DNA from: Escherichia phage SKA64
Sequence record: OM362897.1
Length of the DNA stretch: 64,000 nt
Direction: 5' to 3' (one strand)
Shown: one piece after another, positions 25,344-30,229 of the stretch
Layout: each line of letters starts with the position of its first letter
How positions within the stretch are numbered: the stretch's first letter is position 1
Position numbers and translations under genes: made by a program
Notes under the pieces: generated by a model
What the model saw: the letters and a program-made list of their open reading frames with translations, nothing else
The model's database searches: none
Told to the model about the DNA's origin: nothing

Positions 25344-25562
25344 ATGCGTAAATTAGTGAGCTTTAATGTTTCAATTCTTGTTGATGAACAAAATGAAGAT
25401 GTTATTAAAGGTCTTGCAAATAAGATTGCAGGTGGAATGACGGAAGCTGAAGTGTGGGAAGAATGCGCTCGACTTTATGAGGAAGGTGTTATTGAGGTCT
25501 TGGGGGATGAGATTAATATGGACGATGTTGTAAAAGTAACTGTGGAGCGTATCAATGACTAA
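25344..25562 (+). CDS. hypothetical protein (72 aa)
   Basis: AAGGAGAAAA RBS. Confidence 0.5.
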   Translation: MRKLVSFNVSILVDEQNEDVIKGLANKIAGGMTEAEVWEECARLYEEGVIEVLGDEINMDDVVKVTVERIND

Positions 25563-26148
25563 ATCAAAACAAATCAATATTGCCAAAGAAATTCTTACCA
25601 TACTAAAGATCGCTGATCCTAATTCTGTCTTGGCTGGCGGTGCTGTTCGTGATTGGCGTATTCTTGATATTGCTGGACGTGATCTGGATTTCTATACATC
25701 CCTTCCTGCACATCGGACTGAAGAACAAATACAAGGATTAATTGCATCTGCTTTAATGGGAACCAATATTCGTAAACTAGGAAACAAAGAGGCTTCTGAC
25801 AATTATGAAGGTGTTACTGGTCTTAAACACGTTTTTGAGTTTGAACGTGATGGTCAGCTTTGCAACCTTATGATTATGGAACCAAGCGTAATGACAACCT
25901 TTCTAAATGAGTTCGATCTGTCCATCTGCCAGGCTGCATTTGATGGGAAGGACTGTTATTATTCTAAAGATTTTGAAACAACCTTGGAAACAGGGATCTG
26001 CTTCTTGCACAAAGATGTTAGAGAAGATGCCAAACATGTTATTAAAATTGCTACACGTTTCCCATATCTTCGTTTTGTGAAAGAGGTTAAGGTTCCACGT
26101 CCACCTCAAGTAGATACCAGATTGGAAGAAGATGATATTCCTTGGTAA
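25555..26148 (+). CDS. hypothetical protein (197 aa)
   Basis: ATGA-type overlap; no motif recognised. Confidence 0.55.
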   Translation: MTKSKQINIAKEILTILKIADPNSVLAGGAVRDWRILDIAGRDLDFYTSLPAHRTEEQIQGLIASALMGTNIRKLGNKEASDNYEGVTGLKHVFEFERDGQLCNLMIMEPSVMTTFLNEFDLSICQAAFDGKDCYYSKDFETTLETGICFLHKDVREDAKHVIKIATRFPYLRFVKEVKVPRPPQVDTRLEEDDIPW

Positions 26149-26193: not shown

Positions 26194-26586
26194 ATGACTG
26201 AACGTTCTAAGATAGCTGTTGAAACTGTTTATGGAAACTATACCAGTTTGACACTAGTTGAGAAAAATGTTGTAGGTCTTGACAACTCTTTTTATTTTCA
26301 AATTTTGGTTATTCAAGGTGGAAACAAGAAGCTAACTGCTCGTGTCGAAACATCTGAAATAATTGAAACCACTGTTACAAACAAAGAATTCATTTCACTG
26401 CAAGATACAATCCGAAACGTTATAGACGAAGAAGGCAAAGCTGCCACAATTAAACTCGGAGGTTTCCCAGTGCAAATAGTTCATTTTCCTAATGGTGAAA
26501 TTGGAGTTGGAATAGGTAAAGGTAAATACCTGTTAGAGCAAGATGATATGGAAAGACTCCGCTCTTTCTGTGCAAAATTAATGTAA
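26194..26586 (+). CDS. hypothetical protein (130 aa)
   Basis: ORF after promoter; no obvious SD. Confidence 0.5.
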   Translation: MTERSKIAVETVYGNYTSLTLVEKNVVGLDNSFYFQILVIQGGNKKLTARVETSEIIETTVTNKEFISLQDTIRNVIDEEGKAATIKLGGFPVQIVHFPNGEIGVGIGKGKYLLEQDDMERLRSFCAKLM

Positions 26587-26602
26587 TGTAGAGGAGATAA
26601 TA

Positions 26603-27490
26603 ATGTCCGTAATTAATACTGAAACTGATCGTAAAGGCAAAACCGTAACTTATGCAACTGGTATCGTAGACTACGTTAAACTGGATAAATTCGCTGAACC
26701 TAAAACCTTCCATTGGGAAGGAAAAACGATTGTTTCAACTCACCGAGCTTCTCTTGTTCTGAAAGAGAAAGGTGCTAAACCAGATGAGAAAGGTGTTTGG
26801 ATTTCTCTTGGTGACATTGAACTGAAAGAAGGTTATGAAAACCTGCAAGTCAAAGAAGGTGATAATTGGATCACTATTGAAAAAGGTGTAGAAGTAAGTA
26901 TTGATATTGATCGCGTTGATAATAAAGGCGGTAAAACTTACTACAATACTAAAAAATCTCGTATTACAGTATTGTCTACCGATGGTGTTCAGAAGTCTAA
27001 CAAATCTTCTGGCAATAAAGGTTCCAACGATGCTGCTCCTAAGCAGTCCTATAAAAAACGTGATACCGTAGGTCTGGAAACTGGTCACGCAGTAAATGGT
27101 GCACTGGAACTGATTCGTAATGGTGTTAAAGGCGATGCTTTCGATATCGCTGGGGTTGTTCAATCTGCAACTGTCACGCTGAAATCTGAAATTGCTGAAT
27201 CTCGTGGCGTTGATATTAATGATTATGATCTTGGGGCATCTGTTGGTCACGCTATTCTCAATGCTTGTAAAGACCATACCATTAAGACTGTCTCTGTAGA
27301 AGATCTGATTGATTCTGCTCGTAAAGTTCTGGCTCTGTCTGATAAAGTTGCTGCTGCCATTCGTGGTTCCGCAGAACAACCTAAGAAAGAAGAGAAGAAA
27401 GAAGTTAAGAAACCTGAACCACAACCAGAACCAACTCCAAGCAATCAAGAAGAACCTCCAATGGACTTCGACGATGATATTCCGTTCTGA
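26603..27490 (+). CDS. single-stranded DNA-binding protein-like, with E. coli SSB-type C-terminal tip
   Basis: C-terminus ...EEPPMDFDDDIPF equals the host SSB interaction tail; GAGGAG RBS; highly biased codon usage; N-terminal body not E. coli SSB-like. Confidence 0.55.
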   Translation: MSVINTETDRKGKTVTYATGIVDYVKLDKFAEPKTFHWEGKTIVSTHRASLVLKEKGAKPDEKGVWISLGDIELKEGYENLQVKEGDNWITIEKGVEVSIDIDRVDNKGGKTYYNTKKSRITVLSTDGVQKSNKSSGNKGSNDAAPKQSYKKRDTVGLETGHAVNGALELIRNGVKGDAFDIAGVVQSATVTLKSEIAESRGVDINDYDLGASVGHAILNACKDHTIKTVSVEDLIDSARKVLALSDKVAAAIRGSAEQPKKEEKKEVKKPEPQPEPTPSNQEEPPMDFDDDIPF

Positions 27491-27520: not shown

Positions 27521-27553
27521 AGAAAAGGGAACCTTTGCTGGTTCCCTTTTTTA
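27521..27553. terminator. bidirectional rho-independent terminator between convergent gene blocks
   Basis: Stem GGGAACC/GGTTCCC with 6-nt loop, flanked by A-run upstream and T-run downstream; functional in both orientations. Confidence 0.65.
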
Positions 27554-30229
27554 TTAGTCGTAATATTTCAAACCTGTAATGAACTTCGATCCCCAATCCG
27601 CACTTGCGGCGGTGAACGTCAACATCCAAGTTGTAGCTGTACCAGTGAAGACCTCTCGTTGCACAGTACCATCAGTGTGGTAAATGTCCACGCCAGTATG
27701 TCCATTCTTAGGAATAGTGAAGGTAACAGCACTGGTAGTGTCTCGTGCATAAGAACAAACAAATGGTGTCCCCGCCCAAACTGGATTTGTCATATCGCCC
27801 ATCTCAAGCTGTGGAACCCAAGCAATAAGACCTGCCGTACCATCTCCTGCGAAAGTGTCTGATCCACTTGCATTCAAAGCTATAATCTCATAGGTTATAG
27901 ATGCTTGTTTGGCAACTGTCACTTTGTGTAGAATTACACGATACCAACCATTCCCCATATCGATTATGTTTGCATCTGCACCTGTAAATGTTCCAGCTAC
28001 AAGATCATAAGTCCCTTCGTTAATCTCATCTCCTGAAGTCAATTTGAGTTTCACTTTAGTGATCCCATCTGGCTTCAAGAATACGGATGCCGCCCAGTGC
28101 TTACCTGCTGTAATATCAGAAGCTGTATTCACTGCTGATAAAATATGTTGTCCTGAAGTTGTAGAAGGTGTTAACTTGTAAGTGTTAGCTGTAGTTCCAA
28201 CCGGAGAGTTGATTGTTGATGCTGTGACTGTCAAGTTCGTCTTCAACCACGGGGAAGCTGTTGTCAAGTTATTGTTGATAAAGATATGTGTACGGTTGGC
28301 TGCTACAACACGTCTACCTTGTGGAGTTGTACCAACATATTCTAAAGGTGCTACGGGAGCAGAACTCTCTGTAGGTACAAGGATATCTCCAGAAGCCCTG
28401 GCATAACGGTTACTCCTGTTGACCTTTACATCCGCCGGAATAGTTTCTTGCGTCAAATCATAGTCCATCACAATCACCACAGCATTCACTGTGAGATAAG
28501 AACTATCTTCGGCAGTTACCACACCTTGATAAGTTGCTCTACAACCGATACGACAACCTCCATCAGCAACCGCTGTAATAACGCCTGTAACGGGGTCAAC
28601 TGTTGCTACCGTAGGGTCATTAGAGAAATACTCAACAACCATACCAGGTAAGCTTGCTGCTCCTGTTGGCGTTATTTCTGCTACCATTGTTTGTGTTGTT
28701 CCTACATCCATCGCAGATAAGCTAGGAGTGTAAACGCTCAATGTTGAAGCATATCCTCCAGAGGTATCTGATAAAGTTGTTCCTTCGGCGTTTAAGGCTG
28801 TCATACCTGCATCAAAACCACCTTCTGCATGGAAAGTCATTAAACCAGTAGATGATATTGTCATGTTTGCAGGGGCAGAAGAAGTGTATTTAATATTGAA
28901 AAGTTTACCTCCTTCTGGGCTAACAGAATGTGTCAACTGTTTAGTTCCACCTACAATACAAATTCCTAAAGAATCTGTAGTTAAGCCAGTTGCCAGAATA
29001 TCACCCGTAATCACGGAGCTTGCTATTGGTGTGAATTTATTATAGTTTAGACCGCTATTGAACAGATACGAGGCTTTCCCATCTTTCCAAATACCGGAAT
29101 AATACATATCTCCATTATAAACGAAAAAGGTTCCTTGATAACCTAATTGGTTAGTAACATCCATATTCAGCGTATGAACGCTTGTGAGCTTGTTTATATC
29201 CCAAGAACCCACTCCTTCAGGTTTAACTGGTTTTCCCACTTGGAGTGGATCTCCGCTCGCAGAATCATACCCCAAACCTAAGTTTGCAGTGTAGTTCTTA
29301 CCAATAGCCCACAAGGAATTATTGATCCCAACGAAAAAAGAGTGGCGGCTTGGTGGAAACTTCCATGTTGAGAAACCTGCTGCAAAGGTATCCAGTTTAG
29401 TGTAGGTTGTTTCTGTATTAGACCTAACATATAAGTAGTTTACTGTACCCGTGCCACCGGAGGTATCTCCTACAACTATTGTCTGGGAAACTGTATTGAT
29501 GTAATCTTTGACATACACTGTTTCAGTAGCGGATATCTTAGCATTGACAAAAGCTGTTGTTGTGTTATTATTACCTGCTAAACCTTTACTAGCTCCACAA
29601 ACACGCAAGGTTCCCACATTGTTGACATAAGAGCATTGGTTGTAACCTGCATCAAAAGCAACTGCTGCACTTGTTATCTGACGAGGAGTAGAAACTTCGT
29701 TAGTAGTACTTGCACCTAAACTACCTACTGTGTTTTGACCAGATCCGTAAAGAACACCACTATTCATTAACCAGAGAGTGTTGTTATATCCTCCCTTAAC
29801 CTCTTTAAGATTGGCTAAAGAGATAGTCCCTGTTATTACAGATGGAAAGCTGGTCCAAGTAGTTACACATGCGTCCGTACCACCTGCTGCTATAGATCCT
29901 ACCAATCCTGCTGTCAATCCTGAATATTGCCATCCCCCACTGTTAGTTTTAATAACAAAACAACGATCTGCGGTAAACACATCCGCTACTACAGTAGAAG
30001 CTAAGTGGAAATTATTGAATCGTGCACTACGAGTTCCATCTGCAATTTCACCAAAAAGGTTTGCGCCTTGAGTAAACAATCTACCATCATTAAGCAAAAT
30101 TGCTAAACTGCTATTAGAATTACCAGCATTATCTGGGTAATCTAAAGTGATTACTTTTTTAACAATACCCGCTGGCAGAGGAACGACACCAGTGCTGGTC
30201 ATAATAGTAAATATTGGAATTGGAAACAT
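27554..30229 (-). CDS. tail fibre protein (891 aa)
   Basis: Last gene of late operon; Gly/Thr/Ser/Asn-rich beta-rich composition; GGAGGG RBS. Confidence 0.45.
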   Translation of the reverse strand: MFPIPIFTIMTSTGVVPLPAGIVKKVITLDYPDNAGNSNSSLAILLNDGRLFTQGANLFGEIADGTRSARFNNFHLASTVVADVFTADRCFVIKTNSGGWQYSGLTAGLVGSIAAGGTDACVTTWTSFPSVITGTISLANLKEVKGGYNNTLWLMNSGVLYGSGQNTVGSLGASTTNEVSTPRQITSAAVAFDAGYNQCSYVNNVGTLRVCGASKGLAGNNNTTTAFVNAKISATETVYVKDYINTVSQTIVVGDTSGGTGTVNYLYVRSNTETTYTKLDTFAAGFSTWKFPPSRHSFFVGINNSLWAIGKNYTANLGLGYDSASGDPLQVGKPVKPEGVGSWDINKLTSVHTLNMDVTNQLGYQGTFFVYNGDMYYSGIWKDGKASYLFNSGLNYNKFTPIASSVITGDILATGLTTDSLGICIVGGTKQLTHSVSPEGGKLFNIKYTSSAPANMTISSTGLMTFHAEGGFDAGMTALNAEGTTLSDTSGGYASTLSVYTPSLSAMDVGTTQTMVAEITPTGAASLPGMVVEYFSNDPTVATVDPVTGVITAVADGGCRIGCRATYQGVVTAEDSSYLTVNAVVIVMDYDLTQETIPADVKVNRSNRYARASGDILVPTESSAPVAPLEYVGTTPQGRRVVAANRTHIFINNNLTTASPWLKTNLTVTASTINSPVGTTANTYKLTPSTTSGQHILSAVNTASDITAGKHWAASVFLKPDGITKVKLKLTSGDEINEGTYDLVAGTFTGADANIIDMGNGWYRVILHKVTVAKQASITYEIIALNASGSDTFAGDGTAGLIAWVPQLEMGDMTNPVWAGTPFVCSYARDTTSAVTFTIPKNGHTGVDIYHTDGTVQREVFTGTATTWMLTFTAASADWGSKFITGLKYYD

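Follow-up and report, generated by a model that had tools for sequence, protein, structure and literature searches.

A probable SSB of Escherichia phage SKA64 with a divergent body and the C-terminal tip of the host SSB

The gene at positions 26603-27490 of the window, which is the whole 64,000-nt stretch of Escherichia phage SKA64 (OM362897.1) that was analysed, probably encodes the phage's own SSB, assembled from non-bacterial parts and ending in a tip that would dock the partners of the host SSB; we put the probability of this reading at about 0.6. It sets out from what was observed, namely the absence of another SSB, the predicted folds, the sequence features and the conservation pattern. 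The product of this gene is referred to below as the window protein.

Organisation of the gene and its surroundings

The gene is a complete ORF with a plausible ribosome-binding site, and its product divides into five segments. The features of the region are as follows.

25555-26148, plus strand: nucleotidyltransferase of 197 aa ending in ...LEEDDIPW (phrog_10174, E = 7.9e-63), with the tip codons at 26131-26145
26194-26586, plus strand: ORF of 130 aa between the nucleotidyltransferase and the SSB-like gene (phrog_16560, E = 1.1e-76)
26591-26596, plus strand: Shine-Dalgarno sequence GAGGAG, read from the sequence, 6 nt before the ATG of the SSB-like gene
26603-27490, plus strand: complete ORF for the SSB-like protein of family phrog_4477, from ATG to TGA (27488-27490), 295 aa
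26603-26977, plus strand: predicted OB-fold domain, residues 1-125, the presumed ssDNA-binding module
26978-27067, plus strand: disordered basic linker, residues 126-155 (pLDDT below 50 at 135-149; pI of the segment 9.9)
27068-27361, plus strand: four-helix domain, residues 156-253, the best-conserved part of the family and the presumed oligomerisation or partner-binding module
27362-27451, plus strand: disordered K/E/P-rich linker, residues 254-283 (pLDDT 44-72), varying in length and sequence across the family
27452-27487, plus strand: SSB-Ct tip EPPMDFDDDIPF, residues 284-295, the same 12 residues with which E. coli SSB ends
27523-27550, strand not assigned: terminator-like hairpin with a G+C-rich 11-bp stem and T/A runs on both sides

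The SSB-like gene is the last in a rightward block that also holds a primase/helicase, small ORFs, the nucleotidyltransferase and the 130-aa ORF, as well as a protein annotated as a 3'-5' exonuclease, whose product gives just a faint DNA_pol_A match. The gene order around the 130-aa ORF is kept in phAPEC8_ev052 and in locus L002. Downstream, the hairpin separates the SSB-like gene from a convergent gene of the tail-fibre region (27554-30229, minus strand); the scan placed this hairpin on the minus strand, and the T run on the plus strand is our own reading of the sequence.

The C-terminal tip is identical to that of E. coli SSB

The window protein ends in ...TPSNQEEPPMDFDDDIPF (in a longer stretch, ...PEPTPSNQEEPPMDFDDDIPF), that is, in a disordered linker that terminates in an acidic D-D-D-I-P-F tip. 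When aligned by HMMER with E. coli SSB (PDB 1eqq), all 12 of its terminal residues are identical, and the PSN just before them is also common to both proteins, which bears out the claim of an earlier note on this DNA that the protein ends with the exact host SSB tip. The tail by itself reached E = 0.004 when the family profile was compared with PDB sequences, and the match to the NCBIfam SSB model PRK09010 is confined to the tail (residues 254-295), at 22.8 bits against a cut-off of 260. The terminal hexapeptide DDDIPF is, to our knowledge, found in nearly all bacteria; just the extended EPPMDF...PSN context points to Enterobacterales.

Among 52 diverse homologues, P294 and F295 are invariant and D288-D292 are at least 87% conserved. 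Nearly all family members end in an acidic run followed by [ILV]PF, and many retain exactly PPMDFDDDIPF. The linker ahead of the tip varies freely, while the tip itself is kept across the phrog_4477 family, remote relatives included; because the tip is conserved where the linker diverges, it is a selected motif rather than a chance match, and the pattern in these alignments is the one expected of a functional short linear motif. Five remote members of ~190 aa (P0137, P0158, P0169, P0178 and P0180) stop after the helical domain and have neither linker nor acidic tip.

As to the origin of the tail, some family members and E. coli SSB have 16 residues in common, APSNEPPMDFDDDIPF. This identity exceeds the part known to contact partners and is therefore a hint that an ssb gene may at some time have donated the tail by recombination. 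At the DNA level, the tip-coding sequence is 85% identical over 40 nt to the chromosomal ssb of E. coli, 85-92% identical to the ssb genes of P1, P7, Seszw-like and many other phages, and, for the ssb genes of plasmids and phages taken together, 85-94% identical over 35-40 nt. These values give no support to the tail having been taken recently from the host ssb, as the identity is about that of the same peptide with free codon choice; an older recombination may still have been the source. It is conceivable that the OB-like domain binds RNA, dsDNA or protein, and that the tail is just a functionless leftover of such recombination with ssb. This explanation is, however, very improbable: the two terminal residues are invariant and residues 288-292 stay acidic in homologues as distant as 30% identity, whereas the linker next to them changes.

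The host-type tip is in itself common among phage SSBs. In a sample of 80 canonical SSB genes from viral contigs, 70 of the encoded proteins end in an acidic xPF tip, nearly always (N/S)EPPMDFDDDIPF. Together with the similarity of the tip-coding DNA, this figure makes a host-identical tip on a phage SSB ordinary, and a phage SSB bearing the host tip is an already known idea.

A second protein with an SSB-tip-like C-terminus is encoded nearby. When the window and the rest of the OM386656.1 genome were searched for other acidic-IP[FW] tips, just one further ORF was found, the nucleotidyltransferase two genes upstream of the SSB-like gene. (OM386656.1 is a phage that encodes the identical SSB-like protein, and its other 87 kb served for the rest-of-genome searches.) The PolyA_pol head match of this enzyme is weak. 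DDIPW or a close variant is kept in 10 of its homologues at 58-97% identity, with a variable linker before it, and two remote homologues have no DDIPW tip. Judged by this C-terminus, the nucleotidyltransferase is a non-SSB enzyme bearing an SSB-tip-like end. It could be a CCA-adding or tRNA-repair enzyme serving a tRNA cluster; at least 10 tRNA genes are clustered in OM386656.1 (L008, 41987-43915).

The body has no detectable sequence homology to bacterial SSBs and a predicted OB fold

Outside the tail, sequence searches with SSB models and profiles gave no match. Pfam returned no SSB (PF00436) match at E <= 1 and no Pfam family for the window protein, the matches to the PHROG and NCBIfam SSB models were limited to residues ~250-295, and a profile of 52 homologues matched the SSBs in the PDB in the tail alone. 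A distant relationship in sequence between the OB domain and canonical SSBs was dismissed, since a profile of the N-terminal domain aligned to 55 canonical viral SSB OB domains with an hhalign probability of just 0.4%. The OB domain accordingly shows no PF00436 or PRK09010 sequence match.

The earlier note had proposed a fold prediction of the N-terminal domain as a check. In the AlphaFold2 model built from the family alignment, with a mean pLDDT of 83.6, residues 1-125 are predicted to form an all-beta domain and residues 156-253 a four-helix domain; the basic linker between them (126-155) and the tail (254-295) are predicted to be disordered. Foldseek searches of the PDB gave weak OB matches, the best at E = 0.015, and neither homology nor a close fold match to T7 gp2.5 or Enc34 ORF6 was found. 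The all-beta prediction and the weak OB matches combined suggest an OB fold of the nucleic-acid-binding type, as in bacterial-type SSBs, that has no close solved relative; the N-terminal domain is hence predicted to be a divergent OB fold. The note's description of the body as otherwise unrelated to SSB holds for the sequence and does not hold for the predicted fold, while its designation of the protein as SSB-like is supported.

Conserved aromatic (W66, W89, Y113, Y114) and basic (K34, K41, K84, K111) residues of the N-terminal domain would fit an ssDNA-binding surface. In the helical domain, a G-H-A-(V/I)-(N/L)-(G/N)-A motif occurs at the starts of helices 1 and 3, and this repeated G-H-A-x-x-N-A motif suggests a duplicated helical hairpin.

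Family and distribution

The window protein matches phrog_4477, a family of "unknown function", over its full length (E = 2.7e-97) and has the architecture of that family: OB domain, helical domain, disordered linker and acidic xPF tip. The helical domain is marked by the motifs RD..G.E.GHA.NGA and DYDLGASVGHA.LNA. We retrieved 137 homologues from a large protein database and, by tblastn, 337 phage records, which span Stephanstirmvirinae, Vequintavirinae (rV5-like) and related 135-155 kb phages of Klebsiella, Cronobacter, Pectobacterium, Serratia and Salmonella. The helical domain alone, searched by phmmer against 1.84 billion cluster representatives, matched 65 clusters, almost all of the same architecture. 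In members of ~370-425 aa, the first linker is interrupted by an additional small beta domain, which is missing from the window protein.

Two sets of apparent relatives were set aside. The "SSB" of Salmonella phage 40, in which the helical domain seemed to sit on another body, stems from a fragmented Vequintavirinae assembly with split ORFs. Long proteins of 650-2000 aa were taken as compositional or repeat matches, given signal-peptide-like starts and cell-wall-anchor-like ends; the helical domain is matched weakly 2-8 times over in P0148 (1955 aa), P0157 (2003 aa), P0161 (656 aa) and P0184 (407 aa), one of which has such a start and end.

At the nucleotide level, megablast of the gene returned 70 phage records, 64 at >=95% identity and 6 at 80-90%. 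These are mostly phAPEC8-like myoviruses of E. coli (Phapecoctavirus, Stephanstirmvirinae), several of which encode a protein 100% identical to the window protein, and the enterobacterial host that had been read from the tip was thereby confirmed. The GenBank label of the gene is mostly "hypothetical protein"; it is called SSB in a few records, including some of identical proteins. In several records labelled "Campylobacter phage" (MG065650.1, MG065645.1, MG065656.1 and others), the encoded proteins have 62-99.7% identity to the window protein; these genomes are sized like E. coli phages, and their C. jejuni host labels look doubtful.

Capped tips and downstream homing endonucleases

The tip does not end the protein in all members of the family. 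In about 15 family clusters, 14-17 extra residues follow IPF, namely APIGLQYGRNFLHCF and variants of it, giving a capped tail of the form …DDDIPFAPIGLQYGRNFLHCF; in sister phages the conserved cap measures 15 aa. Over phrog_4477-type and canonical SSBs together, the cap reads APIGLQYGRNFLHCF, APVGLQYGRNLLHVI, APVTLPFPRHAIHAI or APIGLPYPRHAIYVI. Capped members include P0001, P0013, P0029, P0041, P0048 and P0053, and one capped cluster is 99% identical to the window protein, which is itself uncapped. The cap also occurs on canonical SSBs, for instance those of Vibrio phage V039C (…NEPPMDFDDDIPFAPVGLQYGRNLLHVI) and of lambdoid phages such as HK75 (APVTLPFPRHAIHAI), and was present on 10 of the 80 sampled canonical viral SSBs. 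A literature search for the cap or junction sequence found no paper. The capped SSB genes and the endonuclease genes found downstream of SSB-like genes lie as follows.

alia, L007 625-1572: capped SSB gene
L002 4001-4933: capped SSB gene
V039C, L005 577-1125: capped SSB gene
HK75, L006 1066-1572: capped SSB gene
L002 4905-5399: downstream endonuclease
L090 and L091, from 1536: downstream endonucleases
L092, from 1544: downstream endonuclease

In several Phapecoctavirus and Vequintavirus genomes, the SSB-like gene is directly followed, or overlapped at its end, by a gene of the homing-endonuclease type. Examples are the HNH/EndoVII-like gene (phrog_2340) of ZCKP1, Mt1B1_P17, nieznany and L002 and the genes of Bas51, Bas54 and Bas58 that are annotated "putative homing endonuclease". 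The 3' end of the SSB-like gene thus looks like a homing hot-spot, and in the window the gene has no homing endonuclease downstream. As the endonuclease ORF of L002 starts inside the extension, we considered whether the cap is an artefact of HNH insertion; this was rejected, since alia, V039C and HK75 are capped and have no downstream endonuclease. The same combination of a cap and no downstream endonuclease is seen in Justusliebigvirus phages. By our count, the cap codons of alia and V039C differ by 7 synonymous and 4 conservative changes. The cap, which occurs without an endonuclease and with codon differences that are mostly synonymous, is thus a selected peptide common to unrelated SSB bodies.

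Recognition of the SSB C-terminus uses the free carboxylate of the terminal Phe. Since the cap would bury this residue, it should block canonical docking in the host pockets. An AlphaFold2 model of the capped homologue P0013 gives the cap no structure, at a pLDDT of ~50 that makes it uninformative on this point.

One may ask whether these observations belong together, with a portable SSB-tail cassette moving among unrelated bodies in a free and a capped form (AP[IV]GLQYGRN[FL]LH.. / APVTLPFPRHAIHAI), the DDIPW enzyme forming part of the network and homing driving the exchange. We regard this as a speculative and, on the whole, unlikely account. Were it true, the cap would either switch the protein from the network of host SSB partners to another receptor or hide it, the nucleotidyltransferase would use its DDIPW to enter the same network of tips under phage control, and the downstream homing endonucleases would drive the exchange of cassettes. 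The capped tip, the homing endonucleases downstream of the gene in relatives and the tip-bearing nucleotidyltransferase are more unusual than the host tip itself, and new knowledge would come from the capped variant and from the non-canonical architecture.

A homologue is the trigger of DRT10 defence

A relative of the window protein has recently been studied. Bas52_0087 (QXV84166.1), an SSB-like protein of the BASEL phage Bas52 (Vequintavirinae), triggers the DRT10 (UG17) defence, and two Bas52 escapers of this reverse-transcriptase defence carry D252V or Y351C in it, both placed by the authors at a putative oligomerisation interface (bioRxiv 10.64898/2026.04.29.721553). In AlphaFold2 and Phold predictions the protein resembles an SSB: it has two OB folds, its C-terminus is disordered, and its tip is FDDDIPF; the dosage of SbcB (ExoI) modulates DRT10, the phage protein is suggested to compete with SbcB, and Stephanstirmvirinae are also restricted by DRT10 (bioRxiv 10.64898/2026.04.29.721553).

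We assigned Bas52_0087 through its orthologues in three BASEL phages and in FV3, four sister Vequintavirus genomes in which the gene has the same index. D252 and Y351 occur in all four of these 408-aa homologues (Bas51_0089, Bas58_0088, Bas57_0085 and FV3_195), and Bas51_0089, the homologue scanned, matches phrog_4477 over its full length (E = 4e-173); from this match and the two residues in the four homologues we infer that Bas52_0087 almost certainly belongs to phrog_4477. The escape sites map to the helical domain of the window protein, D252 to D154, in the near-invariant RD at the domain start, and Y351 to A250 in the last helix. The idea of the earlier note that the protein could engage host SSB partners is therefore already published for a homologue of ~35% identity.

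It follows for the phAPEC8-like phages that they may be sensed via their SSB-like protein, and that escape may map to the helical domain. The BASEL phage PaulScherrer (MZ501100.1, 150 kb) carries the capped form of the tail; if it belongs to the Stephanstirmvirinae and the trigger is the same, triggering would not depend on a free tip.

Function of the protein and alternative explanations

No canonical SSB was found elsewhere in the genome: tblastn with the OB domain of E. coli SSB against the window and the 87 kb of OM386656.1 gave a best E of ~0.8, and no SSB is annotated in those remaining 87 kb. This absence, the position at the end of the replication module and the presence across the sampled genera make the gene product most likely the replicative SSB.

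The C-terminus of SSB is recognised by ExoI/SbcB, RecQ, PriA, the Pol III chi subunit, RecO, RecJ, Ung and topoisomerase III. In the mechanism that we propose, the divergent N-terminal domain, with its predicted OB fold, would bind ssDNA, and the four-helix domain would multimerise the protein or hold a phage partner, a role suggested by its conservation and by the site of the DRT10-escape substitutions in Bas52_0087. The disordered linker of ~40 residues would then present several copies of the host-identical tip, which, in keeping with established SSB-Ct hub biology, would dock host readers of the SSB C-terminus onto phage ssDNA in competition with the host SSB. Two findings count against this mechanism in its full form. 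The phage has its own primase/helicase, polymerase-like protein, ligase, exonucleases and UvrD-type helicase, and so may need few host partners. Furthermore, the capped tips of sister phages (Justusliebigvirus and some Phapecoctavirus) indicate that docking by a free tip is not essential to the family.

The same findings lend themselves to a phage SSB whose tip works chiefly within the phage system, through phage partners, fold-back onto the OB domain, or both; the identity with the host tip would in that case reflect how the tail was acquired and not hijacking. T7 gp2.5, T4 gp32 and the HK620 SSB-Sak4 pair are the models for such internal use or autoregulation. The phage's own replication and recombination proteins, the viability of capped variants in sister phages and the conserved DDIPW of the neighbouring enzyme, which suggests a phage-encoded tip receptor, are all in line with it, as is the recruitment of a phage recombinase by the tail of HK620 SSB (PMC5928155). 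Nevertheless, the identity of 12 residues plus PSN exceeds the ~6-9 generally needed for pocket binding, the exact PPMDFDDDIPF recurs in many family members, and the genetics of the homologue, which tie it to the dosage of host ExoI, fit an interplay with the host. We consider a chiefly phage-internal tip unlikely, though it is the main rival reading.

It is also possible to see in the protein a decoy with no replicative role, which would titrate host SSB-interacting proteins such as ExoI and RecQ by drawing them off the host SSB or the ends of phage DNA. An oligomer that displays many tips would sequester such proteins efficiently, and the preprint on DRT10 suggests that Bas52_0087 may displace or compete with SbcB. 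On the other hand, the protein is the sole SSB candidate in a 150-kb lytic phage with its own replication module, its OB domain is conserved, including the aromatic and basic residues, and the gene is present across the sampled related genera (Vequintavirinae, Stephanstirmvirinae and similar ~145-150 kb phages). Moreover, both Bas52 escape mutants (n = 2) are missense and not knock-outs, as an essential gene would give. A pure decoy is thus improbable, and a replicative SSB with a host-type tip remains the preferred explanation. It would give a probable function to a gene that is mostly "hypothetical" in the GenBank records of phAPEC8-like therapeutic phages.

Comparison with known systems

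Like E. coli SSB (PF00436; 1eqq, 1kaw), the window protein combines an OB fold, in its case a predicted one, with a disordered linker and the identical 12-residue acidic tip, and the hub logic is presumably the same. It differs in that its OB domain has no detectable sequence homology to that of E. coli SSB and in the extra four-helix domain that follows the OB fold and precedes the linker; the OB-OB tetramer interface is probably not involved in oligomerisation. The canonical SSBs of enterobacterial phages and prophages (P1 Ssb, HK75, Seszw and IMG/VR contigs) have the same tip as the window protein, but their bodies are clear homologues of the host SSB, at 64-87% identity, whereas the body of the window protein is not.

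The closest studied system is that of the Vequintavirus homologues, which are ~35% identical to the window protein and have the N-terminal OB domain, the helical domain, the disordered linker and an (F)DDDIPF tip in common with it. These proteins are longer, at 408 aa, with an extra beta domain (the "second OB fold" of the preprint) in the first linker, which the window protein does not have, and their tip context is AFDDDIPF or EFDDSIPF as against the full host-identical EPPMDFDDDIPF.

Finally, HK620 SSB (with Sak4) and T7 gp2.5 are, like the window protein, divergent phage SSBs in which an acidic, Phe-ending tail recruits partners. Removal of the last six residues of HK620 SSB abolishes the stimulation of Sak4 (PMC5928155), and the terminal Phe of gp2.5 is reported to be required for the interaction with the polymerase. 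In contrast to the window protein, neither has a helical domain, and their tails (NDYPPF in HK620) are not identical to that of the host and serve phage partners.
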